The notes beneath the pieces were generated by a model that saw only the letters and a list, made by a program, of their open reading frames with translations, searched no databases and was not told where the DNA came from. Made by a program: the position numbers and the translations under genes. Positions 5,380-56,908 of a DNA stretch of 64,000 nt are shown here, one piece after another. The stretch spans positions 30,290,150 through 30,354,149 of the forward strand of contig NC_134026.1 of assembly GCF_964204645.1 (NCBI RefSeq). Direction: 5' to 3'. The stretch's first letter is position 1; each line of letters begins with the position of its first letter. This stretch comes from Tubulanus polymorphus. Lineage: Eukaryota; Animalia; Nemertea.

Positions 5380-6597
5380 TCATGATTCGAATTCAATTTT
5401 CTTCCAAGTATCTAAGATGATTTTCACTTCACTGCTGGACGGTCTCTCGTCAATGTCTGGTTCCCAACATTGGGTAAAGAGCTCGTGATAGCACGACTCA
5501 AACGGGTCCATTTCTAGATTTATTTTTACGGGAAGAGCCGGTCTCAGTCCGTAAGCTACGACGCCAAAAATTACGACATGAGGGTTTTCAGCACCGTATG
5601 GTCGTTCTCTAGTTAACATTTCCCATAAAGTGATACCGAATGAGTAAATATCAGCTAGACTGGTGGGTGAATCACCGCGTAATAGTTCCGGGGCTCGATA
5701 TGCGAATGTACCAGTCAACTGCGATCTACGACATTGATTAGTTTTACCTCCTATCAACTGACAACAACCGAAATCTCCCAATTTACAAACTTCCTCGCTC
5801 GAAATCATTATATTCGAAGGTTTTACGTCCAAATGTACGATGAACATGTCGTGGACGAATTTTAACGCGTCTGCGATATTCGAGGCAAACCGGAGTCTTT
5901 TTTCGGCAGGCAAACAATAAGATTGATCATTAATTGCCTGTTGTAAGTTGAATTCGCCGGCGTATTCCATCAGTAAAAACGGCTCTCCATCCAATGGATC
6001 AATTGCCGCTATTGTTCTAACGATATTACGATGTTTCACGGTCAGTATGTTTAATTCCGCTCGATAACTCTCCAATTGCGCTTGTTTATTTTTCATGCAC
6101 AAATGCATTCGTTTTACGGCCACTCGGCATCCACCCGCCGTCCAACCTTCATATACGGCTCCGAATCCTCCCGTTCCGACCAGTCTCTCGATAATAATAT
6201 CATCTTTTCGGATACTGCGACCCATGAATTCCAGCCCGATCTTTTCGGAGAGTCTCCGTTGTAGTTGCATATGACACGATAATGTCTGTTCTGCATTTGG
6301 CGTAAGATTTTCATCTGGTTGAAAATGATTCGATCGACGTAGATTCTCCCGAAGATTCGTAGGATTTGTCGATAGTTTCAGCGGATCTCCGATTTCACAT
6401 TCGATCCGTTTCGTTTTCAGCATGAAGAAATGCAAATACAGCATATGCTGTTTCGGTTTCTTAATCTGACGGTAACATTTTAACAAAACGCTTCTCCACT
6501 TTCGTCGAGGAGAAATTTCAGAAATTGTCCGTTCCTTGTTGCAAGCGTAGAAATCGAATTGCCGAAAGATCTGATCAACAAGATCGAAGAACGTCAT
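5380..6597 (-). CDS. MOS: Mos serine/threonine kinase (MAPKKK, oocyte maturation factor), single exon
   Basis: Uninterrupted ORF with GTGGFGAVY, VAVK, HLDVKPSNI, DFG and GTFAYRAPE. Mos-diagnostic segments: SYRAELNI..HRNIVR and VIFGVVAYGLRP. Intronless, like known mos genes. The true start Met is uncertain. Confidence 0.92.
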   Translation of the reverse strand: MTFFDLVDQIFRQFDFYACNKERTISEISPRRKWRSVLLKCYRQIKKPKQHMLYLHFFMLKTKRIECEIGDPLKLSTNPTNLRENLRRSNHFQPDENLTPNAEQTLSCHMQLQRRLSEKIGLEFMGRSIRKDDIIIERLVGTGGFGAVYEGWTAGGCRVAVKRMHLCMKNKQAQLESYRAELNILTVKHRNIVRTIAAIDPLDGEPFLLMEYAGEFNLQQAINDQSYCLPAEKRLRFASNIADALKFVHDMFIVHLDVKPSNIMISSEEVCKLGDFGCCQLIGGKTNQCRRSQLTGTFAYRAPELLRGDSPTSLADIYSFGITLWEMLTRERPYGAENPHVVIFGVVAYGLRPALPVKINLEMDPFESCYHELFTQCWEPDIDERPSSSEVKIILDTWKKIEFES

Positions 6598-7364
6598 TAT
6601 AGAAACTATTATTCGATGTTATGATTTTGATGTCGGTAGTTCTTGGTACGTGAGAAGTAACACGCCGCATCGACTGACTGTGTGGCTGTTACTGCTGCCA
6701 CTGATCAGCTGTTGTTATTAGACCGCCGTTGTCAGCCGTTACCTATCACAAACAACTCCGACTCAATCGATATTTGATATTATTTCAATTCCAAGGGTGA
6801 AATATCTCTCAATATCATAATCCGATATTAAAAACTGGTAACAGATGAATGAGTAGCCACCCCTTTCTTAAGATGAACTAATCCTCGTGTAATTAGAGTG
6901 ATTAATAACACGGTTTGATGAAGAAATGGTGTGTGGGCAATTTGCATGTAAATGCTGTTTGTCTAAAGATATCACAAAATGACGCGCGTTCTGTCGCGCT
7001 TCTATTTTGGTATGACTGGCTATTTTCTAGAAGAGATAAGAATGTTGAATCCAGGTCGTTAGTCTGAACGTCATCGCGATCCTGGCAACGAGTGGTTGTT
7101 TTGCTCGATGTTAGAGTATCTACGGGGCGCGCTACGTCGATCAAGCGGGCATTCTCAGAATCAACCGTGTTGTTCTTGCAGATATTTTGCGATCGCCCCG
7201 GCATAATAATCACAGGCAATCAATATTTGTCAGTCCAGGGGCTGCCATTTCATATAATGACTCAACATATTCCTTTAAAGATTTGTCATTGTGTTAATAC
7301 GAGGTGTAAGAGAACCTCCCTTCATACATCCTATCAAACCCGTGGCAGGTATAGAGAATGAGTA

Positions 7365-18200: not shown

Positions 18201-19277
18201 TCTCGCAAAATAAGCTTACGATCGCTTCCAAACGTTCTAATGACCCTTCTTACCCAACTCTCTTCGTTTTTTCCATCACATCACATTCAACTATTGGATA
18301 ACTGCATTATTTTATAGGTTACTATTTACAAATATGATAATTATATGCGAACATGTCATTTATGTGTAATATGCATGATCCTTAATGTTTTTTTTTTTTT
18401 CATTCCAGATTTGGATATAATTGATAATATAATGAAAGACCAGTCTGAAGCAGCCCGCAGAGCACTTCCGGGATTGAAAAACGTTTACAAAAGGTGCGTT
18501 GCAAATATCTGCGGGCCTAAGGAGCCAACTCCTCCTAAAATAATTCCACCATTTGAGTTGGTTCCTTTGCAGGAGGTGGACCCTGCTTCTCCCGTAAATG
18601 TGGAGCAGGAGGTCGCCCCTGCAGTGGTGACCCCGACAGAGGCGCCACAGCTTCAGACGCCTTCACTGCGTCGGTCGCCCCGTCGTAATACAAAAGAAAT
18701 AGATTATACAGAAGGTACGGGGCGTCCGAAATCAAAAAAAAAAGGCAAACGTGCAGCTCGTCCTCCCCCACTTCCACAACCAAATTTTGAGGAGGAGAGC
18801 AGTGATGAGGAGGAATTCGCCACTCCTGGAGCGCCACCACCAGGGCCCGCAACACCACCACCTCGCGATGATATTAGACCACCACGACGACCACGACAAC
18901 CACCTGCAACTACTACTAATTCTACTACTACTACCACTACTACCACTACTAAGAAAAGACGACCACGACCACCTACTTCAACTGCGACTAGTACTACTAC
19001 AACTTCGACAACTAGATCAAATAATACAAGAAATAGAAAAAGAAGACTTGAAGATGAAGAAAGTGATGATGATTATGAAAATAATAATACGCCCGCCCAG
19101 GCATCGACATCGGGCGCTCCAGCGGGGCCACCACCTTCCCCCGCTGTCGAGCTCATCGCGCGCGGCCCTGGTTGGTCAAGAAACATCGAGTATAATGATC
19201 CTATTAAAATGCTCCGCGACGTTGAAGGGGCCTTTAAAGGCAAATATGAATTAGTTAAACGCAGGCGAACTCATTAA
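12207..19277 (+). CDS. Orphan gene, predicted ~322-aa basic, Pro/Thr-rich, largely disordered nuclear protein (coding exons 12207-12306 and 18409-19277)
   Basis: Phase-1 donor A|GTAAGT at 12306 matches a strong phase-1 acceptor (T13..CATTCCAG|) at 18408. The join reads MSTKYDLFSGLLKLVRAEVLTLDPETLGAFFDLNLDIIDNIMKD... The 869-nt GC-richer last exon is open, has NLS-like tracts, and is followed by AATAAA at ~19479. The exon join is inferred. Confidence 0.6.
12860..13160. repeat. Degenerate ~35-bp minisatellite
   Basis: Units of taactggactgcggtgtagtccatattttagtcaa. Confidence 0.85.
13706..13925. repeat. 23-bp minisatellite, about 9 copies
   Basis: Unit gtttactcagtatccggaccaca. Confidence 0.95.
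13998..14301 (+). mobile_element. ~300-bp non-autonomous element with imperfect TIRs
   Basis: Ends tcttcacccgtcaaggg ... ccctggcaagcgaggatg are roughly complementary; a deleted sibling lies at 10012. Confidence 0.6.
15265..15660 (-). mobile_element. SINE with LINE-like 3' tail, interrupted by a MITE
   Basis: Minus strand has ggcaagacact..cctctctccacccagaagtaaatgggtacc (conserved SINE central-domain-like), then gtaaagcgctctgag and a (TAT)n tail. Confidence 0.65.
15375..15511. mobile_element. PIF/Harbinger-type MITE
   Basis: TIRs gggccggttccatagtc / gactatggacccgccc with a 3-bp CTG target duplication on both sides. Related termini (cagttccacagtt / aactgtggaactg) occur at 1-42 and 23820-23892. 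Confidence 0.8.
16520..16948 (+). mobile_element. 5'-truncated L2/CR1-group LINE: ORF2 C-terminus, 3' UTR and (CCTAT)n tail
   Basis: RDHISLILRSLPVRKRILFK..LAPSYL..GGRAF..APTVWNSLP..FKAQLKTFLF is the typical ORF2 end. The usual HWL is deleted. A microsatellite tail follows. Confidence 0.9.
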
Positions 19278-23250: not shown

Positions 23251-23639
23251 CTTTTAGAACAATGATTTATTTGTATTTCAATACTAACTAAAAGATCAAT
23301 TTGATGAAATATTTTATATATGACTATCACTGTGTATATTCGAACCCCAGTGATTTCATGAGAATGGAATAACTGAAGGTCCAGGTTTTATCACCGAATA
23401 CTCTTTGACACAATTACGTGGTCCACAACACAGATGTAAATAGTGGTTATATAAAAGGCCCATGCTGTATATAGTGCACGCATAAAGAGCTTTTACTCGT
23501 AGTTGATATAGGCTTAGTAAATATGAAATGTGATTGAGAACTTTTTCTCATACTTTCTTTACCTTTTTTCTTGTAGTTTTTTTCAATTTTTATTAATTCA
23601 GTGAATTATCTACTCATTTTCAGTTGGTGTTTCACTATC

Positions 23640-23810
23640 ATGGAATGCGATGAATAAAAAACAGTCCGAGTGTATTTTTCATATGATATTTTCAGCGTCC
23701 CGTCGTATGAAATTTTTAATTTTGAATATGATGTCATCTCAAGAAAATGTATGACTGAAAACATCATATGAAAAATACACTCAGATTGTTTTTCATTTAT
23801 CTCGTTCCAT
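23640..23810. mobile_element. MITE with long TIRs
   Basis: atggaa..aaaaacagtccgagtgtatttttcatatgatattttcag / ctgaaaacatcatatgaaaaatacactcagattgttttt..ttccat. Confidence 0.8.
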
Positions 23811-23819
23811 ACAATACAG

Positions 23820-23892
23820 GACTCAGTTCCACAGTTTGATTTGGATACAAGAATTTAGATACATATTTGTTGCATAACTGTGGAACTGGGTC
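23820..23892. mobile_element. Short Harbinger-like MITE
   Basis: gactcagttccacagtt ... aactgtggaactgggtc. Confidence 0.7.
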
Positions 23893-24277
23893 TTGTTAAA
23901 TTGTGAGCATGATGTTTATGATTAATCACTGGTGCGTTTTGAACTAGATATTAAAACTTTGGTTTCAAGTTAACCTTAGTTTAGATTAGTTGGTTTTTGT
24001 TAAGTTATTTTAGTAATTTTCGCTGTTTATGAATTTAATTTGTTCCAGTTGATTTAAGTCTAATTTAGTTAAAGTTTTAGTTCATTTAGGTCAAGTTGAT
24101 TAAGTTTTAACTATAGCTGTTAACTTAAATAAAGTGTAAACCTCTGATAAACTGAGGGTCAATTTATCTTATGATAAGTTACACTCGGGTATATTAATCA
24201 ATAATCCCGTTTAAGATCTCCTTTTTTTATGTGGTTCGGAGATTTTCACTGAATAAAATAGTAACATCTTAGAATGT

Positions 24278-24948
24278 GATGAACTGAGGGTAAATTCATC
24301 ATTGTTGAAATTACTCTCAGGATCATCATTAAAACAATGAATGAACTGAGGGTATATTTCATCATTGTTGGAATTACTCTCAGGATCATCATTAAAACAA
24401 TGAATGAACTGAGGGTAAATTCATCATTGTTGAAATCACTCTCAGGATCATCATTAAAACAATGAATGAACTGAGGGTATATTTCATCATTGTTGAAATT
24501 ACTCTCAGGATCATCATTAAAACAATGAATGAACTGAGGGTAAATTCATCATTGTTGAAATCACTCTCAGGATCATCATTAAAACAATGAATGAACTGAG
24601 GGTGAATTCATCATTGTTGAAATCACTCTCAGGATCATCATTAAAACAATGAATGAACTGAGTGTGAATTCATCATTGTTGAAATCACTCTCAGGATCAT
24701 CATTAAAACAATGAATGAACTGAGGGTAAATTCATCATTGTTGAAATCACTCTCAGGATCATCATTAAAACAATGAATGAACTGAAGGTAAATTCATCAT
24801 TGTTGAAATCACTCTCAGGATCATCATTAAAACAATGAATGAACTGAGGGTAAATTCATCATTGTTGAAATAAGTCTCAGGATCATCATTAAAACAATGA
24901 ATGAACTGAGGGTAAATTCATCATTGTTGAAATTACTCTCAGTTCATT
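24278..24948. repeat. 62-bp satellite, about 11 copies, each containing a stem-loop
   Basis: Unit gaactgagggtaaattcatcattgttgaaatcactctcaggatcatcattaaaacaatgaat. Confidence 0.97.
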
Positions 24949-27039
24949 GAGGATATTTTAGCGTTAACACCAGTTTTAATTACCCCACTGTTTTCTTGTT
25001 ATTGAAAGTAACATCACTAGTTATAGAATAGATGATTAGGTTTTTTATTGTTCGATGAACTTGCAGTTAATTAGATTGATTAATAATACAATACTCTCAG
25101 GTCATTGAAACATAATCTTTAATGTTATCTTAATTTTAGGGATCTAGGGTTTTACGCTGAAATAGATTATAAATGAATGAAACAATGGAATTTTAAATCA
25201 GTATTTTTTCGTTACTGTTAGAGAACTTTTTTTTAGTTTTTAAGCTTTTCACTTTTTGGTGTCTCTAGATTCTAGTTTTTTTTCTAAAATATTGTTGAAA
25301 TTTTGTTGTGTTTTTTAATCGATTTTAAGCTTAAGTCCCAGCAGGCTAGTGTATTCGCTTTTTATCCGTTGTTCGACTGGCAGAATAGTATCAAGATGGC
25401 TGACTGGTAGCCATTCTTGTTCGGCACTTTTACACAGTTTAGAAGTTTTTAAGGGAGGTTTCAAAGATTTCTCCAACATTTGATGTTTGATACCGATATT
25501 TATCCCCCATCATTATTAGAAATATTGGGTTGCTTTAACTTACAGTCATGATGTTTGATAATTGTTAGCATTGTCATAGGACACCACTTACATGGAATCA
25601 TTCTTACCCCATTTTCTATTCTTCCCATCAGAGGTATTGAATTCATACAAATTAAATATCTAAATTGTCAGATTGTCAAGCATTTCACCGAGTGGGCATG
25701 GTGTCCCTGCACCTCTAGTTTATATCTTTTTTCACTGCTTTCAAGGTTCTCGTACACATTTCATATTTACATGCAGCTTTTTCATTCGATATATATCAAT
25801 GCCATCCTCACTTGCCAGGTTTTAATTGTCGTCTGCCGAAGCTCATGCCAAGACAAACCCTGGTCGAAAACTCTTCATTGGTCTATTACGTTGTTCAAGA
25901 TTGCTTGGGTAGTCAGGTTGCCACTGAGAGGCCACCAGTCTATATATCTAGCCAATCAGATGCATTGTTTTTCGCCGGCAGATTTGCTACACATCTGATT
26001 GACTAGATGTAAAGACTAGTGGCCGCTTAGCATCAACCCGTCAACCGAAGATATCTTGGAGAACGTAAGATACCAATTAAGGGTTTGCCACCAGGGTTTG
26101 TTTAAGCGTGAAATTCGGTGGGCGACAATAAAACCCTGGTGATTGAGGATGTATCGATGTACATATGAACACACAAGAAGCCAAACATAATAGGCGGCAT
26201 TATTATTGGGAGGTGCACCTGGCCTAATATATCGCGCGGTAAAAACCACTCTATCCGTGGTTGTGTAGTACCAGTAATTGATGATCATCGAGTGAGTGAT
26301 TGGGCTGGCCCAGTTATTCCATTCTGAAATCACTTGGGTTCCGATTATGATTGACAAATAATATAAAATATTTCATCAAATTGATCGACACATTTTATCC
26401 GTACTTGTACATGTTGTAAATTTATAAATAGCTTTTTATTTGTATATATTTTTTTTTTTTAATTGATTTTGATTTCTACTAGTAAATATTTTTAGATATC
26501 TTTTTAACTTAAGATTTTAATGATTATTTAAACATTTCAAATATAATCTTAAATTTTTAATTTTCTAAACTTCATAATATCTATACATCAAATCTATTTC
26601 AGTGCAAATAAATTTTGATAAAGATTTAATTGATAATTAATATTTTTAATTCTATTGAATAATTTTAATATTCAAAACAACAGAATGAATGCATTCAATC
26701 TTAGTTTGATACTGATATCACTTGTTGCATCTATTGTTTTAACGAGATTTTAACCTATAAGTTTGGAGCATTGATATTATTTCATTGCATTAGTCCCGCC
26801 TCCTCATTTATGGCTGATGGTTGATTTCAGATTTTCAGCTTCTGATAACATTAATATTAATTCAATGCTACGTTATGTTTTGTTGTTTTATTTCATATGA
26901 ACGTTTTCAAAGATGACTTTTTGTCGAATTGATATTTGGTAGTGCAGAGGTTGAGATAATCATACAATTTTATAGAATTGTCTAAAATACTGTACCTAGT
27001 AACATATAAGTAGTATTGCTAGTGTACCTCTATTTTCAA

Positions 27040-27790
27040 GTTGTCCTGTGGTACGACGTTAAACTGCCTCATTTTAACAATACGTTTTATCAGTGATTTT
27101 TATCTGTTTGTCCTGTGGTACGACGTTAAACTGCCTCATTTTAACAATACGTTTTATCCATACATTTTATCAGTGATTTTTATCTATTTGTCCTGTGGTA
27201 TGACGTTAAACTGCCTCTTTTTAACCGTTTTTATCCATATGTTTTATTGTTTTTACCCATATGTTTTATCGTTTTTATCACCCCTTCTTTTTCTACCTTT
27301 CTCTATCCTTTCCCTCTCTGTCTCTATCCTTTCCCTCTCTGTCTCTATCCTTTCCCTCTCTGTCTCTATCCTTTCCCTCTCTCTATCCTTTCCCTCTCTC
27401 TCTCCCTAACCCACTAACTCTCTTCTTCTTTTTCTAACCCACTAACTCTCTCCCTCTTTCTCTAACCCACTAACTCTCTCTTCCTCTTTCTTTAACCCAC
27501 TAACTCTCTCCTCTCTCCTTTCTTCCTCTCACCCCTCTCCTTCATCCTTCCTCCTCTCTCCCTCCTCTCTCTCTCACTCTCCTCTCTCTCTCTTTCGCTC
27601 TCTTTCTCTCTATCTTGTAAATATTGTAAATTTGTAAATAGTAGTTTTTATTTCTCTTGTAAATATTGTAAATTTGTAAATAGTAGTTTTTATATCTCTT
27701 GTAAATATTGTAAATTTGTAAATAGTCGTTTTTATTTCTCTTTTTAATTTTCTTGTAGATATTGTAAATTTGTAGATAGTAGTTTGTTTT
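27040..27790. repeat. Composite low-complexity tract: short direct repeats, CT-rich microsatellite, ~42-bp AT-rich repeat
   Basis: tgtcctgtggtacgacgttaaactgcctc x3; (ctatcctttccctctctgtct)n; (tcttgtaaatattgtaaatttgtaaatagtagtttt..)n. Confidence 0.9.
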
Positions 27791-27908
27791 TTTCTTTTTT
27801 CATAATTTTCATCGGATCTCACTTTATTCAATACAACAGAATGAATGCATTCAATCTTGGTTTCAAACTATTACTTTTCACATACATTCGTAGCATTGAT
27901 ACCATTAC

Positions 27909-35228: not shown

Positions 35229-35559
35229 ACCGACGCATCAATTGCACTAAACAGCACTGGCAGACCCGCGGGTCCATGCGCATGGTTAGCAAATTGATCA
35301 GCATGCAGCATGCCATCTTTGTGTGTGGAAAGAATTTACAAACAGCTGTGATTTTAAAAATAAGGAACGTATTATTTGTATCATTCCTTGTAAAATCTCA
35401 AATAACGATTATGTAAAGATAAACATAATATCAATTTTATGATGGTAAAAATATCAAAATGTCAAATAATTAAATATCAATTTGTAAAACGAGAGGAAAG
35501 AGAAAGATGAAAGTACCAGAAAGAAAAGTGTTGGATTGGTGTCTGTTGTCAGTAGAAAT

Positions 35560-37310
35560 CTGAGGTACTCTACTGAGGAATCTCCACTCCCCAAACAGAG
35601 AGTTCAAGATGATACTGAAAGTTCCTGAGGTTCCTAGAAATTTCACTAAGTAAAGACTTTAAATTAGGTATAGTATAAATTGCTATGAATTTCGTTATAG
35701 CTAAGAATGTTCTCAACTAGGACGGTAAGTTAGTATTACGTGTATTTCATATTTCCCTTTTGTAGCGTGTATTGATTTGGTCATCTAGTACAAAATACCA
35801 AACGACTGACAGGAAACAGGATTGTTCCAGTTGTCGTTGAGAAATATTTAAGGTGTCATGAGTCTGAATTGACTATAAATCAGGTAAAATTGTACTTGAT
35901 ATGAACTTCTTTGCAGGAACAGTCGACTTAAAGATGGTTATGTTTATTTTATGTATTTTTGTTGTAGCCTCCACGCCCCAAACAGAGAGTTCAAGATGAT
36001 ACTGAAAGTTCCTGAGGTTCCTAGAAATTTCACTAAGTAAAGACTATAAATTAGGTATAGTATAAATTGCTATGAATTTCGTTATAGCTAAGAATGTTCT
36101 CAACTAGGACGGTAAGTTAGTATTACCTGTATTTCATATTTCCCTGTTGTAGCGTGTATTGATTTGGTCATCTAGTACAAAATACCAAACGACTGACAGG
36201 AAACAGGATTGTTCCAGTTGTCGTTGAGAAATATTTAAGGTGTCATGAGTCTGAATTGACTATAAATCAGGTAAAATTGTACTTGATATGAACTTCTTTG
36301 CAGAACAGTCGACTTAAAGATGGTTATGTTTATTTTATGTATTTTTGTTGTAGCCAGTGGACTGTTGTTGTTAGAGACGCTCAAAACCGGAGGAAAGGAA
36401 ACATCAGAGTTCAGGAAGTGTTGAGGAAATTCCTCAAGGTCCGAGTCATGAATCTGAATTGACTATAAATCAGGTATAATTGAAATTTATTTTGAAGAAG
36501 AGTCTCAAAAATGATATCATAATTCATATTTTGTGTTTTATCATTGTAGTATTGAGCTTGTGGTTGGCCGTAAAATATCAGACGACAGGAAAAGATCAGA
36601 TCAGAGATGCTGACAAATTTCTCCGTCAATTCGGGACTTCTTTCAGTGTTTGTACCCAGAAATCGAAGTACTCTGGGGAATCTCCACATCAAACAGAAAG
36701 TTCAAGAAGATACGAAAAGTTACTGAAGTTCTGAGCAATTTCTCTTCTATGTCATGTGACTAGATTGACTATGAATCAGGTAAAATTGAACTTAGGAATT
36801 TCTTTGCAGGAACAGTCGACTCAATGAAACTGGTTACTTTTATGTATTTTTGTTGTAGCCAGTGGACTGTTGTTGTGTGGTAAGAGATGTGCAAAACCAG
36901 AGGAAAGGAAAATATCAGAGTTCTGGAAGAATTGAGCAAATTCCTCAAGGTCCGAGTCATGAATCTGAATTGACTATAAATCAGGTAAAATTGAATGAAT
37001 TTTGTTTTTATGAAGAGTCTTATGAATGAAAATCATAGTTTATTTAGTACATTGTTGTTGTAGTTAGTATTGAGTTAATCGTCACACAATACCAGATATC
37101 AAGATGGAAACGATACCGATGATGCAGATCAATTTCCTCATGAAAAACCTAAGTGGCATGTGTCTGAATCTACTTAAAAGCAGGTATAATTGAAATTTAT
37201 TTCAAAGAAGTCTCAAAAATGATATCATTATTCATATTTTGTGTTTTCACATTGTAGTACATGTATTGAGCTTGTGGTTGGCTGTAGAATATCAGACGAC
37301 AGGAAAAGAT
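35560..37310 (+). pseudogene. Array of tandemly duplicated, mostly decayed exon+intron units; includes a near-exact 387-bp duplication
   Basis: The end motif gactataaatcag|gt or a variant recurs 8 times, each followed ~75-100 nt later by a T-rich ..tgtag acceptor. One copy (36859-36984) is an open 42-codon phase-0 exon. Confidence 0.55.
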
Positions 37311-37313
37311 CAG

Positions 37314-37686
37314 ATCAGAGATGCCGACCAATTTCTCCGTCAAATCGGGACTTTCAGTGTTTGTTACCGCGAGTTATCGTAGTTCCAGAGATGCCGACCA
37401 ATTTCTCCGTCAATACGGGACTTTCAGTGATTGTTACCACAAGTTAGCGCAGTTCCAGAGATGCCGACCAATTTCTCCGTCAAATCGGGGCTTTCAGTGA
37501 TTGTTACCTCGAGTTATCGTAGTTCCAGAGATGCCGACTAATTTCTCCGCCAAATCGGGGCTTTCAGTGTTTGTTACCCGAGTTATCATAGTTCCAGAAA
37601 TGCCGAACAATGTCTCCGTCAAATCAGGACTTTCAGTGTTTGTTACTGCGAGTTAGCCTAGTTCCAGAGATGCCAAACAATTTCTC
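37314..37686. repeat. 70-bp minisatellite, about 5 copies
   Basis: agttccaga recurs at 37381, 37451, 37521, 37590 and 37660. Confidence 0.92.
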
Positions 37687-39256
37687 TGAGGCTGATGGCT
37701 TCAGGGATAGGTTGAATGTAAATACACATTGTACATCTATTGGAAAATAAATATGAACTGATGGTTTGATTGGCTGGTTTGTTGTTGAATCTGATTGTGG
37801 GTTATTAATTACTGATGTGCTGCGACTTAGCGTTTTATATGCATACATTTCAAAGGGCTTCTCTTGTTTTTGTTGTGCTGGTTAAATTATTTTGTAAATG
37901 ATAATTGAGGATGTCAAACTTTGGTTTAGAGTTTTGTTACAGTGATGAATGAATGCACTGTATATGTGGAGATTATGTACTTGTGACTGCGTTTGTTTTT
38001 GTAAATACAGTTATTTTTTTAAAATGATTGTTTTTGTGTTGCATCTCATTGTGACGATGTTAAACTCTTAACTCAAGATACTCAGTTTGCTCTTGACTTG
38101 TTTGATTATTATATTGATGAATACATTGATTTTATGGTGTTTGATTATCTGTTGAACTATTGTTTATGAATACCATTTGAACTACTAACCACTAGTTGTT
38201 TTAACATCAGTATCATTAATGGTCAGTTGTTCTCTACAAATTATATGTGTTATTATTTCTTTATATAATGTACGGTGGACTCTCTTAACTAGAATCATTT
38301 CAAGTCCAGTCACTTTTATCTTGGAGTAATGATTTTCCAAGCTTACATCAACTCGGACATAAAGACATTGAACTATTGCATTGAAATTCTTTTATCTGCA
38401 GGTGACAATTATCACCTTGTCTTTATTGATTCGAGTTAGTCAAGTCTATTGTACATGGATTCTTTTTTCTCTGGAAGTGAATTAAATGAAACGAGACGAC
38501 AGTTGAACCCCATTAATACGATTGTGTTTAGGACGAAAACCGTTTATTACGATCAGATTTTCGGCATGTCCCGGCTAATTTACATCGATCCATATTTTGA
38601 TAATACGACAATTTCACTTTCAACCATAAGATTTGTATTTAACTAAGGATCCACTGTAAAATGAGGACTTCAAACCATTCTCACTGATGTAGAGACTTTC
38701 TTTTATTAAAGTTTTCAGTCTGATTACTCATAAATTATGCATGTATCAATCTGCCGCAGCTTGGCACTACCCTATCTGCTGAGGATACTCCAGTACCTAC
38801 CCATACCCTTCAGACACTCGTTTAGACTTTAGACCTTCTACATAATCTGAAGTACTCGCTCTTCAAAGACAGCTTGAACCCTCCTCCCACCCCCTTTCAG
38901 ATAGAATGTCTGGGGTCCAGGCAACAGATCGACACCTTTCTATTGGCTTTGAGTAATCAGACCGATCTTGTCTGATTACTCTTTTTTTATATCTTAAGTT
39001 TCTTTGCCGTAAAAGCTGAGCGGCCGGTTGTAGCTCCATAACAAACTAAATCACACCCACTGGAGTCAGGTGGGGGACTGATCAGTTTTAGAAAATAGAA
39101 TATTTGAATAAGGTCTGAGACTTTCATTTATTTGACTATTTATGCAGCTATCAACCTGCATTTTGGACACTGATTCCCTGCCATTAATGGAATAATTAAT
39201 TTGTCTTTTCGCAATTGTTTCCTTAAATACAGTTTGTTCTACACTGAAAAATAACT

Positions 39257-42743: not shown

Positions 42744-44041
42744 TCAATAAGGAGAAGTGACCGATGCGACCCTTTTCCTTGTCCGATCACAATTATTATA
42801 CATCCATATTCCGGATAATGTTACAATCATTCCACAGACACTGGTTACTGATAAACCGGTACCAAATATAACTACAGATAACAGAATATTGAACACTGTC
42901 ATTACATTCCCCAATAACGCTACAGTTAAATCGTGCGTATGGTAAGTGACTAAAAACGTCAGAACGTTGTAAATCGCGCAAACTAGTCCATCTAATACGA
43001 GCAAAAATAATACGTTTATAGTTGCGAAAGAACTTAGTTCAGTACTGGTCGCATCTGGAGTTTGATTGGTCACGAAGGCGACCACAATCAGCATCGGAAC
43101 ACACGGTATTGATATATAATATAATAATGACAACGAATTCATATTTTCATCTTTCAGCAACAAACCTATAAAATAAAAAAGAGATTTCTTTTGAGCGCAA
43201 ATGCATTAAATTGTATGTCTCGAGTGAAGAAACGAACGGACGACAAATTCAGAGTGACGCGTACGACATTGTGAAATTTTGTTTACTTCTAACTGCAAGT
43301 GATTCAAATTCAAATTTTACCTTGTGAAATAGTTTTTCCACTTTTTAGCGTCGCCGACAATAAATTCGCGACGAGCGCAGACCAAACAAAATCAGTTTCA
43401 CCCAAAACACACATCAAAGTTCCCAGGCACACTGGAACCATGCTGAGATATGTTATCGAAGTTTTCTTCGTTTTTGTGATGATTCTCGATAGAATAGCCG
43501 TTATAACGGGAGTTATCGATAAAATCATTTTAGAAAATGAAACAGATCCAAAACTGATTCCCATATTACCGATAGCCACACTAGCGCAGAATATAACACT
43601 GAGAATCGATAACTTCTTCCAACATTTCCACTCGAGTTTACTATGATGTTCTCGGAAAGACGTCCGTTCAAGAATGATTTTAGTTACTAAATAGCACATG
43701 AACACTTGAGCTACAGATAGACGAATCGGATAGTTAAAATTATGCTGTTGGAAAATGTACTTGTTTAGATTTGAAAGTGTAAGTCCAGCGATAAACCAAC
43801 CGATGACAAACAGCGAGACGTAACTTTTCTCCGGCTTCAGTTCTTCGTGTTTACGTTTCGTAAATCCTGATCTACCGTCATCAGAACGATTAGAATAAAT
43901 CAATGAACTCGGTAGATATATCTCATTATTGAAACGATTATTAAGACATGGTTTCCTTTCGTGTAAGCCTCTCTGGTAGCAAACTGATGGAACCAGAAAT
44001 ACGCTGAAAGTTCGCGCACCACCGAATGTATTCCCACACAT
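42744..44041 (-). CDS. SLC35E-family (triose-phosphate transporter domain) nucleotide-sugar transporter, SLC35E4-like; 2 exons (44041-43321, 43165-42744)
   Basis: LSNLNKYIFQQHNFNYPIRLS, many TM segments, and an in-frame junction KTISQ-G-LLLKDENMNSLSLLYY. Start codon uncertain. Confidence 0.85.
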
Positions 44042-45149
44042 TTTTCACCATATATCAGAAGGAAAATCTTCAATACACTCGTAAAGATATTCAACTTAAT
44101 TCGGTGGAAATTCAACTTTTATTACTATTGAACCGTGCAGTTGTATGTTGTCTTATTGACTGATTTACAGGGTCAACTCTATTCATATATGAAGACAGTT
44201 CTAAAGACAAACTTGTCGTTCATTTATTGGTTCAATGTATTGTCTCACACATGGAATTCATGGTCTCCTTGATATTATCAGTCTCGGTCCAATTTAGATA
44301 GTTCCTATTTTTAAACTGGACTTTAAACTGATAATCAGTCTGATCAACCATGGACTCTGGTTTTAAAGAGTCCATGGATCAACAAACAAACATGAGTGCC
44401 GGAACGCGCGGTCGAAAAGAAAAGGAACTGGATAAAGTAGCCACACCAGAGGCCGCAAGCGGTGCTGACATTTTTGTGTTGAAATTAAGGTCATAGACAT
44501 TTCTGAAGAGATAAATCCGAAAAGATGTATTCAAGAGGATTACTGTCAAATAAATGTGTATGGAGTAACTTCAACAGGAAGGCAGGGGCCAGGACCCGCA
44601 TTAAACCCCCAAGATTCGCCCTTTGGACCTGACATTTTAGGAAACTGAAAAAAAGAATGCGAGAGAAACCATCGATACAATTAACAGTTCGATTAAATGA
44701 ATCTTTTATTGTCACAAAGTTTAAGGCGAATACATAATGATGTACTTTTAAAAAATATACAGATGACGACATTTTTAATTATGAGACAAATATGGCACCG
44801 GAATTTAGGTCGTAAGATATTTTCATCTAAAGAAAAATTAACCTCTTGTAAATAATTGAAATTAAGAAACAAATAAAATACACATACAACAACGAAGTTC
44901 AAAGAGACATGCGTCTGAATCCAATACAATTTGTTAAAATGAAATGAATTTGTTCCAATTTATTATTCATGAAAAACAGTACGTAAAATATTGCACCAAT
45001 CGAATATACGTGAGATATATACACGTATAAGCATGGACGTTTGTACTAAATCTAGTTTATACGTCCATTAGATATAAGATATAAGGGCTCCGTTCTCTTT
45101 GTTCTCTATCTATTACCTATTAGTATACATAAAACATGTCGAATGCTAA

Positions 45150-46906
45150 TTATATATAGGGCAATAAATGAAATCTTTCATTTCTGATAATGGGTTCACG
45201 GTATGATCTCACTCTCACCTCAGCAGCATTCGTTTCTGTTTGGGAATGTTCGTAATATAACGAAAACGTGTTCACAATTCCTGTCACAGAAATACTTAGA
45301 GCTAATATACTAGTGACCGCGCAAAGACTGCCGACACAATATCCGAAAGATGTGATCGGATACAAGTCCCCGTATCCGACGGTAGTTATAGTGACCAGAG
45401 CCCACCACATACCGACAAAAATATCGGCGAATCTGCTCTGATCCTCAGCGTAATATATCAAACATCCAAAAATGATGACACCGATCCATAGAACGACAAG
45501 CAACAACACGATCTCCGGCAACGCTCGCTTCAAAGAGAACATGATCACTCGAAACGCGCGATAGTTCCTCATTATTCTGAACAGTCTGAAAACACGGATC
45601 ACTTCGAACGCTCGGAAACATCGCTGAAACGTGCTATTAAACCGAAGATTCGGTACAGCTAGAATCATAATGCCTAAAATAATAGGGGGCACAATAGCGA
45701 AGAAATCAATTATATTCAACGGAAAAACAATGAATCTCTGCTTGTTTGGGCAGCTGCCGAAGCGCAGAATGAATTCAACCGCAAAGAAAGTCAAACAAAC
45801 GTATTCAGCTATCAGGACTTTGTTAGTGCGAAACGTTATTCCTGGTGGTAAAGGATACTTGGTACGGTTGGCTACTAATTGCGTTACGTTGATTCCGTAG
45901 AATTCAGCGAGTTCATCATCGGCGGGATTCCGTCGCATCGATGCGTATGACGAGACGACCATGATCACAACCGATGCCAGAATTACCAGATTTGACAGTA
46001 TTGAATAAACCTTCAAATATGAGAGATATAATTAATTACAACAAATTCGGCATAAATTTGTCAACGTTTAAATCTAATCGTTGCATCGATAAAAATTTTC
46101 ATTTTCTATCAGTCAAAGTGTGTATAAGGCTGCGTGGTAACGAATGTTTGTTATTATTCAGTCTTGTGTCAACCAAATCATGATTGATGCTGCATCATGA
46201 ATAATCAGTATTAAGTTACCGTTCCCACAGAGAATATTCATGTTGACATTCTGAATATTTCGTTAAAAATTGTATTCAGTGAGCTTGATTAAAAGCCAGT
46301 AAAAAGTCGGCTATCGATTAAAGATAGAAACCATTGAATGGATAGAAATTAATCTAAAAATCGTCGCATATAAGTTCACTGTTACATGTAACGTACCATG
46401 GCTGGTTTTGTAGATGCCGGATAATCGAGAATTAACCAAATCTTGTTGCACATCGTAACTTGATCGGGAAATGGTTTATTCACTCTTCGATCGAACGTTT
46501 CCAATGTTGTTTTGTTGTTGATCGTTTGGTTAAAGTGAATCCAACAACAACGTTTTACATCGGTCCAGTTGATTCCCCAGAAATCCAGTTCTAGTTTCAC
46601 AGACCAGCCGCATTGTGAAAACGGCACGTGTAACTCACCAGTTCGATAAAAATTCAATATATATTCAAAACAATCGGCGCTTCTATCGAAAAAATATTCG
46701 CCAGTTTCACGATTGTAATATTTCGATTCGTGATTCAACATCGCTAGTCTCGTATTCGGGATCCGTTGGAGAGTTGACCGCCATGTTTTGAATTTACGAC
46801 CTCCGACGTCCAGAACAACGATACTATCATCGTCACTATCATCGTCTTCTTGTGTGTGGATATCTGACAAATCAATATCCATAGCTTGATTATCGATACC
46901 ATTCAT
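45150..46906 (-). CDS. Voltage-gated K+ channel subunit, Shaw/Kv3-like and divergent; 2 exons (46906-46397, 46010-45150)
   Basis: T1 domain EYFFDR..ILNFYRTGELH..ELDFWGI..CCW; S4 IRVFRLFRIMR; pore WWALVTITTVGYGDLYP. Confidence 0.92.
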
Positions 46907-48084
46907 ACCTCTCTCGACCAAACCAGTTTTTCAGTTCTGTCCTCCTGACATCTGTTTTTATATCTATCTGTCTGTTTATCTGCATGTACGTATGCAAAAC
47001 TGAATAAACACTGCGAAGTCTATCCACGTATTTACCTGAGATTCGATGTCAAATAGTATCAGTACTCCGGAATAACGTTAGTATTTTTAATAGAACCCCG
47101 GCGGGATACGTAATTTTTTAAAATCAATTCTAATTCATCTGCTCAACATTCCATTATCATTAAGCACCTTCCAGTCACCAGCTGTGACAAACTTTAAACT
47201 CACATAAAGATAATATGCAGATTTAATGTCGATGCATTGCTGAATGTACGCAATAACATATTACGTGACGCCCATCAGAAACATCGATACATAATAATAG
47301 AGACATTGATGATATAAAATTGTATCGTCAGCAGCGACTGCAACTAAAAAAATGTCGATTTCCTTATCCATGATTTATGTGAATTTTTAAAGAGCCACTC
47401 TAGACATTGCTATTTACTGACATAGGACGAAAGCCCGGGCTCTGGGAAAACAGCTTGATTGATGGTTGTTTTTCGGCTAACTTCAGTTTATGATGTATAG
47501 CCAGTTGCAAAGCCAAATAAGGCTTACATCTAAGAGACCAAGTTTAAGTCTATTCATTAATTACATGGCGGGTCAAAGCTTTATCTTCTAATAATCAATC
47601 AGATTAAAGCCAATAGTACTGTCAAGTAGTCATACGTAAATCCTCTAAGTAAAACCTAATGACCACCGGCTATTACGAATATATAAATATAGTAACTATT
47701 CACCTTAGAATGACACCAACGTAAATACACGTGCAATTTTGAAAGAATTCATTAAACATTGAATAATAAATGACGAAAAGGGAGACGTAATGATGGATTA
47801 AGTAGATTTTTCATTGGTCGAATGTTGTTAAGTCACTTAAATTTATCCACGTTACGTCTATAATTTCCGGCGACGAAGATTTTGTGCAATAGTAAAGATC
47901 TGAGGCATTCATCTCGTTTATTTTCAGGGGAAAAACAAGAAACGGTGGGGCAGGTGATGATGTCATCATCAGCATGGGCTGCATTACCTCAGAATTTTCT
48001 CTCATCGACCAAGTGACGACAATCATTAACTTTCTGACAGCAGCTGTCTTCATTTTAATAATTCATAATCATATGTCCGATATC

Positions 48085-51204: not shown

Positions 51205-53392
51205 TCATTGAGTAGAATTCTCTAAATTCGATATAAGCATCTCTAAATCAGTGAAAGTAGTTTGCGTGTGCGAATCGGTTAAAGATTCGGTCAGATCTAA
51301 ATGATGAGGATGAAACATTGTTTGAGTTTGAATCGTTGTTGATTGAACAGGAGTTTGTATTCGAGGAGGAACAGGAGTTTGTATTCGAGGAGGAACAGCA
51401 GTTTGCATTCGAGGAGGAACAGGAGTTTGAGTTTGTCTCGACGACGAAAAAGTTGAGAAATCGACGTTATTAGCTAAACACGTTTGAGTATAAGTATTAA
51501 TACACGGGAATCCGGGAAACGGATCCGAGTCGTTTGTTTGCGTTTCCATGTGACTCAGAATCTGATCGAACATACTATCTATAGTTTGAGTCTGCGTGTG
51601 AATAGACGAATTATCGGTGGAAGTTTGTTGATGATTCGTGTTCCACGTGGAAACCCAGTCGTTATTCCACCCGTCGGTGGATTGTTCTAACGCCGCGAAC
51701 ATACAAGTACCGATACCGATATCTGAATAAGAGCACGACGCCGGCGGGGTAGGCGATGTAAGGGTATGTATCCCGGGTAACGGAGTCTGCGTTTCGATCG
51801 TTTCGAAATTCGTCGCTGTTTCGTCGTTCATCGCAAAGAAACTTCTCGGAGTTTGCGTCGCGATCGTTTGAGCGAGTTCTTCTAAAAGCGCCATCGTCGT
51901 TTGAGTTTCTGAATTCATGAAGTCATCGTCGACGCAGTAAGTTTGAGTCGCCGGTCGAGTCTCTATAATCGCGGCTGGTAATGTATCTACGTAACGAGTC
52001 GTAGATTTATGTTTCGATTTCTTCGTACGACGAGTTTTGACCTCCTCAGTTTTCTGAACCGCTTTATCCGATCTACGACAGCGACTGACCGGAGTTTGTG
52101 TATGAATACTGCGGTATTCTATATCAGTTTGAACTGAGATATTACTGAATCCTGTAACAGGTTTTTTAAGTAAACGTCTATATTTTCTTCCACTGCAATC
52201 AATTCCTATTTGATTAAACGATTCTGCTCGATGTCGTTCAGTTGAACTGTAGCTCTTAGTCTTATCATCTTTTAACGAACTGGAATTAAAATCAGAAATC
52301 ATCCATGTTTATAATCAAACTCGTTTAAGAAGATAAATTGTCTCAACATTTCCGAAATTATCTCTATTTCTAGTCCCAATTTTGATTTCCAATTCAATTT
52401 ACTACTAGTAAGTCATCATTTGTATGAGTGATCAAGATAATGATCATAACACCTCGAGTGAGTTTCAGTTTACAACTTACCACACATCACTTGGTAAACT
52501 ATGATTCTTAGAAACGCAATGATTCCTCAGTGCGTTTATAGTTGTATAAGGAGTGTTACAATCAGTGCAGTAGTAAATCTTGCCACAAGTCGCCTGATGA
52601 CTCTTCAATGAAACCAACAGCCCGTAGCTTTTACCGCATTCACAAATAAATTTCTTTTCAGCGTGCACCTTCATATAATGCTGAAACGTATGAAAAGCAT
52701 GAATCTATCCATTAAAATTTAGATATCTACTTGGCTAATGATGGTTGCTTATTTGCATCTGAAAGACATTGATTAGGAGGACAGCGTATTTCACACTCCC
52801 TGGTTGTTATAGAGAAGTGGATGAATTCCCCTTCCAACATGTTATAACATAGTTAGTTACCTAATCGCTGGTGGTAAGCTTTTTATTATCGGATGGGCTT
52901 GTGAAAGTATCCGATCGTGAAACTAAACCACAGACAGGTTACTGACTAGTTATAACACAAACAAATTTCTATTCGACCTGGTTTTGTAATATCTAATATC
53001 TACCTGTTTCACATATTTGAATTTCTTGAAGTGATGAGTCGAGTGAAACTTGCAATTTGTTTCCGGACAAAAGAATTTCTCATCACACGTCGATGATTTG
53101 TGATGTTTCTGGCGATGGTAGAGAGCGGCGTCATCCTCATTCTTTTTATCACGAAAACATAAATGATCCAATTATCGAAATGAAGACAAGAATTCAAAAA
53201 ATGTTTAAGTCAATATCGATCATTGTTTACCTCGAGTAATTTATGGACTTTGATTCGATGTAATCTCATTGCTGATGCTTGCGTGAATATCTTACCACAA
53301 CCCGCTGCTGGACATTTCACGTCTTGTACTTTGAGAAGTTCGTCAATTTTGGGACGAACTTCACTAGTGAATGGCGGCAGAGCAGAATTCAT
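51205..53392 (-). CDS. ATMIN: ATM interactor (ASCIZ): C2H2 zinc fingers plus a TQT-rich LC8-binding tail; 4 exons
   Basis: Exons 53392-53231, 53141-53004, 52680-52481 and 52279-51205. Motifs CPAAGCGK..H..KVH and VKQHYMKVHAEKKFIC; about 10 TQT plus several xQT motifs in the last exon. Confidence 0.92.

Positions 53393-55265: not shown

Positions 55266-56908
<1,643 letters not shown>

Follow-up and report, generated by a model that had tools for sequence, protein, structure and literature searches.

An imperfect inverted repeat of roughly 400 bases was found in the window, i.e. the whole 64,000-nucleotide stretch of Tubulanus polymorphus contig NC_134026.1 that was analyzed. The locus is one member of a multicopy inverted-repeat family, with at least about 6-9 loci, and is a real feature, probably a family of hairpins that are transcribed and edited. 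The reading that we prefer, tentatively and at somewhat less than an even chance, is a multicopy non-coding hpRNA-like hairpin family under constraint, for which splicing would be optional and whose edited transcripts would be small-RNA precursors directed against repeat-bearing transcripts.

The geometry of the repeat was analyzed first in its core, then in its distal part. The core arms (25803-25962 and 25992-26151) are 160 nt each and 77% complementary around a 29-nt loop, with 123 Watson-Crick pairs, 37 mismatches (11 G-T and 7 A-C) and no indels; the hand count of an earlier note on this DNA (37 mismatches, 11 of them G-U, no indels, the same loop) is thus reproduced. The core fold has a z of -19, which 0 of 100 shuffles equalled. 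Its longest perfect run is 12 bp, and all of the 21-nt windows (140/140) contain at least two unpaired positions. The rest of the right arm had been described as an inverse match to a segment 2.3 kb away, and indeed the distal left arm, or "exon 1", aligns to it with a local score of 116, compared to a maximum of 41 in 200 shuffles. This distal alignment comprises 225 positions, of which 159 are Watson-Crick and 14 G-U pairs, and 15 indel events. The perfect 26-bp complement claimed at its base (23294-23319 with 26361-26386) was confirmed at 100%. Coordinates are collected in Table 1.

Table 1. Features of the inverted-repeat locus (positions in the window; X4 is one of the sequencing runs described in the text)
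Feature	Position	Strand	Remarks
Distal left arm ("exon 1")	23294..23516	+	First 26 bp perfectly complement the right-arm end
Insert, 2260 bp	23517..25776	+	Candidate intron or old TIR-bounded insertion; foldbacks, satellite, short high-copy repeats
Insert 5' end	23517..23544	+	Donor-like GT and left arm of 28-nt inverted repeat; kept among copies to ~23580
Insert terminal inverted repeat, right arm	25743..25770	+	Over presumed branch region; 6 nt before AG
Proximal left arm	25777..25962	+	Gap-free core 25803-25962; candidate edited A 25825
Apical loop	25963..25991	+	29 nt
Right arm, uninterrupted	25992..26386	+	Candidate edited A 26128; X4 coverage stops near 26420

The gap-free core, the perfect 26-bp base and one double change suggest a constraint on the duplex. 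Indels relative to substitutions are 0 to 37 in the core and 15 events to 66 in the distal part (Fisher p=0.003), a gap-free core being significant only for a true indel count near 15 (p=0.01, compared to 0.08 for 10 and 0.17 for 8). The double change lies across the insert, at 23436/26256, where the window copy has G-C and the DNA reads have A-U (95/100 and 280/299 reads); it is a single unphased pair, which arm-to-arm conversion would also yield. Among the 12 other distal variants examined, pairing is improved by 3, worsened by 4 and unaffected by 4, and one has no partner. In the core, 5 of the 6 listed variants change a mismatch of the window copy into a Watson-Crick pair in 72-98% of DNA reads; by these variants the window copy is simply decayed relative to its family. 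No G-U bias toward the plus strand was observed (11 vs 7, p=0.48; both arms, p=0.21).

A coding origin of the arms was also considered and rejected: core mismatches are distributed 9/14/14 by codon position, the three ORFs have no Pfam hit and no homologues were found. A search of Rfam, miRNA families included, gave no hit at the gathering threshold (best 31.2 bits, 195 being required).

Copy number was estimated from X5, a run of raw genomic reads (1934 million letters read). X5 covers exon 1 (23376-23515) at a depth of 77-103 and the insert, outside repeat bins, at 56-76; the values rise to 214-318 over most of the right arm and to 343-956 over the left core, and the 3' flank has 65-130. As the smallest reported nemertean genome has a 2C value of 0.43 pg (PMC8468679), single-copy depth is at most ~9, and exon 1 and the insert are therefore present in at least about 6-9 copies. 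Right-arm-like sequence has more than 20 genomic copies by the same depth, and ~25860-25967, in the left arm, is also similar to a dispersed repeat that is far more abundant and has internal deletions. X5 depth stays level across the donor at 23516/7, and the 15 of 26 loose ends listed there include none of junction type. Loose ends indicate that copies part from one another at 23580-23590: the ends of the insert are alike among copies while its interior diverges. Search words from the locus were absent from runs X6-X10, and two arm motifs had 0 matches in metagenome contigs.

Evidence of transcription came from runs X1-X4, whose kind is unrecorded; X4 shares its sample with X1 and X3. X1, X2 and X3 are DNA-like, with symmetric changes and stepped depths. 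In X4, which covers the locus at low depth and in contigs, not reads, plus-strand A>G changes outnumber T>C changes 35 to 12 (binomial p=0.001), positions being listed for 40 of 462 difference rows, and so for a minority of the 35 A>G changes, and some changes being paralogue variants (e.g. 25243 and 25911). The same two counts are 47/54 in X5, 21/25 in X1 and 33/34 in X2, and the X4 excess is significant against X5 (Fisher p=0.0015) and X1 (p=0.006). The plus strand holds more T than A, yet A>G exceeds T>C in X4. At 25825 the change accounts for the entire X4 depth (18.8 of 18.8, 3 contigs), compared to 0/490 in X1 and 2/334 reads in X5; at 26128 it again accounts for all of it (10.7 of 10.7, 2 contigs), compared to 0/443 in X1 and 0/291 reads in X5. 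These two positions are on opposite arms, each at an A-U pair. Over the right arm X4 has a depth of 4-16, which falls to 0-3.75 past 26420, where X5 holds 65-130. Because of the A>G asymmetry, of the depth near zero past 26420 and of two arm sites near-absent from DNA, X4 is likely to be RNA and its A>G excess is likely to reflect ADAR editing of the plus-strand hairpin. The long hairpin RNA proposed from this strand is thus supported by a strand-asymmetric signal, in a run of unrecorded kind. A probable signal of A-to-I editing, which was named as a check of that proposal, is present in the overall excess and at the two arm sites, not in the exon-1 contigs of X4 (n=2), which have 0 A>G among 3 changes.

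The same signal would be expected from a passive foldback, a close rival to the preferred reading and a somewhat less probable one: an old inverted duplication of repeat-derived DNA that later took up a TIR-bounded insertion and was duplicated along with the surrounding repeat block; it would be weakly transcribed, ADAR-edited and cleared, with no regulatory output. The arms are 23-30% diverged and show no G-U bias, X4 depth is low, and 5 of the 6 listed core variants fit simple decay from a better palindrome. The locus sits in a tandem-repeat-rich block and its flanks are multicopy too (65-130 in X5), which could account for the copy number without selection on the hairpin. Long inverted repeats are described as very common in the available part of PMC8728187, and editing as a proposed fate of long dsRNA in molluscs in that of PMC12479628. 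The passive foldback accounts less well for a gap-free 160-bp core, a perfect terminal 26 bp and one compensatory pair, or for insert ends that are conserved among copies with differing interiors.

To refine the nature of the insert we examined the break in the left arm, which the earlier note described as an exact split by a GT-AG intron. The dinucleotides are present at the claimed places, 23516/7 and 25776/7 (GT at 23517, AG at 25775-6, giving a candidate intron 23517-25776), but the exactness did not hold. Around the break the arms are about 50% identical. In an alignment scoring of 12,350 breakpoint pairs the proposed junction came 123rd, and 113 pairs score within 6 points of the best, over 23470-23525 x 25723-25782; the alignment fixes the break only to within about 50 bp. 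Of all GT-AG breakpoint pairs, the proposed junction scores highest (79). Two rival breaks score 77 each, namely removal of the inverted-repeat-bounded element alone and a GT-AG reading of the minus strand, and alignment scores of 79, 77 and 77 do not separate the three. The insert ends form a 28-nt inverted repeat (23517-23544 / 25743-25770, 86%) which had been overlooked; its score is 41, compared to a shuffle maximum of 29, and 0 of 1000 shuffles were as good. A target-site duplication around the insert was looked for and only one shifted 4-mer was found (chance 0.53).

Two MITEs and a 62-bp satellite had been reported within the insert; we located the satellite there, with 10.7 copies over 24279-24942, and also a pair of small foldbacks (23640-23810 and 23816-23896). 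Every unit of the satellite (24279-24948) is a small palindrome, so that the array is an inverted repeat of itself, and a degenerate unit is present at 24145. Short fragments of very high-copy repeats occupy 25390-25423 and 25662-25722, with DNA depth 10-20x that of their neighbours. The insert begins with 60 nt (23517-23576), the part conserved among copies, that look like a small intron with GT-AG ends and a pyrimidine tract.

Folding of the unspliced 3.1-kb RNA, a single minimum-energy prediction over ~3 kb, gave a distal duplex of 128 pairs and a core of 154 pairs; the insert ends pair as a 26-bp stem and loop out the insert. The long duplex is thus predicted with or without splicing of the 2.26-kb insert: as the insert closes itself by this stem, splicing would not be needed. 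The earlier note had made the hairpin dependent on splicing and called for folds of both forms. From its hpRNA-type locus the long non-coding intramolecular duplex is retained, as a prediction; the dependence is not, since in the predicted fold the distal duplex, the core and the insert-end stem all form in the unspliced precursor, and the X4 contigs listed across donor and acceptor (one each) are unspliced. The predicted stem covers the donor and the branch region. The candidate donor has neither a G at -1 nor a G at +5, and donors lacking both are of a weak type.

On the splicing itself, both of the X4 exon-1 contigs (2/2) fit wholly, one of them (depth 4.9) running across the donor unspliced, and one listed contig (depth 12.2) crosses the acceptor unspliced. 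The spliced junction 23516-25777 was found in 0/2 X4 exon-1 contigs, donor and acceptor sides being read separately and the acceptor side listed in part. This evidence is thin, and splicing may have gone unseen because duplex regions drop out of RNA-seq, a depletion described in the accessible text of PMC10317233.

It nevertheless seems unlikely that 23517-25776 is a regularly spliced intron whose removal builds a working, continuous 400-bp hpRNA duplex, as first proposed. The junction register is gap-free at the best GT-AG pair, copies retain the insert's first 60 nt and its 3' end, and most new D. simulans hpRNAs are spliced, again according to the part of PMC10317233 consulted; RNA-seq depletion of duplexes could have lost junction contigs (same source), and the acceptor side is seen in part, with 80/136 X4 contigs fitting partly and 24 of 786 loose ends listed. 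Set against this are the unspliced contigs at donor and acceptor and an X4 depth of 4-21 in the non-repeat bins of the insert, similar to that of the right arm. The predicted stem would also hide the branch region and a donor that is already weak, the GT...AG can be read on the minus strand as well through the inverted repeat, and a different GT-AG intron, 60 nt long, would end at 23576.

Under the preferred reading, the inverted-repeat locus would be transcribed from the plus strand into a non-coding RNA, and the hairpin would fold with its insert spliced out or looped out, the latter in a putative three-way junction. ADAR would edit the dsRNA, Dicer (which would have to be Dicer-1) would cut it into small RNAs, and these would act on transcripts bearing the related dispersed repeat. 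Summed X4 depth on 25860-25999, a sequence related to the left core, is 467-2645, against 4-16 for the right arm; one relative with a deletion reaches an X4 depth of 247 with only 3 X5 reads. These X4-abundant transcripts, recognized by their sequence, are possible targets and the only candidates found; none was found in the 64-kb window, as in the earlier note. The available part of PMC11114477 reports nemerteans with siAGO but without DICER2, and no siRNA signature in N. geniculatus; that of PMC12479628 reports that no endo-siRNAs were found in molluscs. The endo-siRNA step is weakened by these reported absences in nemerteans. We consider more doubtful still than the regularly spliced intron a version in which the family would be hpRNA-type endo-siRNA genes of a Dicer-2-less trochozoan, cut by Dicer-1 and loaded on the orphan siAGO against repeat transcripts. 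The insert stem would then be a splice switch: when closed, splice signals would be blocked and a three-way junction formed; when open, the insert would be spliced out, leaving a continuous 400-bp duplex.

That the arms are the TIRs of a mobile element (a DNA transposon or a foldback element) whose interior varies is very improbable: the perfect terminal 26 bp, the copy number and the variable interior would suit it, but the X5 reads that leave the terminal repeat carry the window's own flank (36) or one variant (8), not varied sites, depth continues into the 3' flank, no target-site duplication was found outside 23294/26386, and flanks shared among copies speak against transposon ends.

The surroundings of the hairpin in the window were also examined. 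At 18318-19277 (+) a 319-codon low-complexity frame, rich in Pro, Thr and Arg and with an acceptor-like site near 18409, has no relative in Pfam, PDB, a protein database, Atlas or viral contigs; it may be part of the same multicopy block as the hairpin. Tandem 42/54-bp units at 27613-27800 (+) are dense with TGTAAATA, which we take to match the Pumilio-binding consensus, and 26404-26490, just past the hairpin, is similar. Short exon-like segments recur over 35500-37700 (+), together with repeated donor-like and acceptor-like sites, a 70-bp array and a duplication of 387 bp, an arrangement suggestive of a multi-exon gene that evolves fast. On either side of the repeat block lie ordinary host genes (5380-6618, 43310-46930, 51205-52308, 55266-56336 (-)): Mos kinase, a TPT/SLC35-type transporter, a voltage-gated potassium channel, a TQT-rich exon, presumably ATMIN-like, and beta-tubulin. 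The best named full-length relative of the Mos kinase is that of Lineus longissimus, the two being grouped together (SH-aLRT 93) in a quick tree of 26 rows.

Transcripts of the inverted-Alu type are ADAR-edited inverted repeats, and the locus resembles them in its repeat-related arms, its plus-strand A>G excess and its low RNA level. Unlike them it is a foldback specific to its lineage, which has a loop of 29 nt and was copied as a unit, and not two independent insertions of one mobile element. Lophotrochozoan ADARs are treated in the accessible part of PMC6651903. In anatomy the hairpin resembles Drosophila hpRNA loci (hp-ODox2, the hp-tHMG cluster, Nmy/Tmy) as presented in the available portions of PMC10317233 and bioRxiv 2021.08.05.454923: a long imperfect non-coding foldback, in several copies, in a satellite-rich setting. 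As in hp-ODox2, whose arms match a TE, an arm is homologous to a repeat. Membership among hpRNAs requires small RNAs and Dicer dependence (PMC10317233, same portions), and hpRNAs are defined by ~21-nt Dcr-2-dependent small RNAs, whereas this locus is known by its sequence, predicted fold and A>G signal, in a phylum reportedly without DICER2. It also differs in that no parent gene was found, and in an arm broken by a 2.26-kb self-closing insert, which has no counterpart in those portions of the two sources.

The insert recalls Introners, which have terminal inverted repeats, a GT at the repeat start and an AG just outside; some of their families have TIRs without TSDs (PMC9860276, in the part available). 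Introners form multi-site families of 5 to over 2000 copies with median lengths of 30-654 nt (same part), whereas the insert is 2.26 kb and its splicing was not seen in X4. X5 depth gives no indication of the element at unrelated sites: on the 5' repeat it is 87-88, equal to that of exon 1 (77-103), with no spike.

The listings of a literature search of incomplete coverage showed no nemertean hairpin-RNA locus. Should the locus be no more than an edited foldback, it would be ordinary. If the self-looping arm insert is true, a hairpin RNA can bear kilobase insertions without splicing. What the nemertean siAGO carries without Dicer-2 is an open question in the accessible part of PMC11114477, and a multicopy, apparently edited hairpin is a concrete candidate substrate. 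The reported absence of Dicer-2, together with that of an siRNA signature in N. geniculatus and of endo-siRNAs in molluscs, lowers the odds of endo-siRNAs from this family and raises the value of a positive result.
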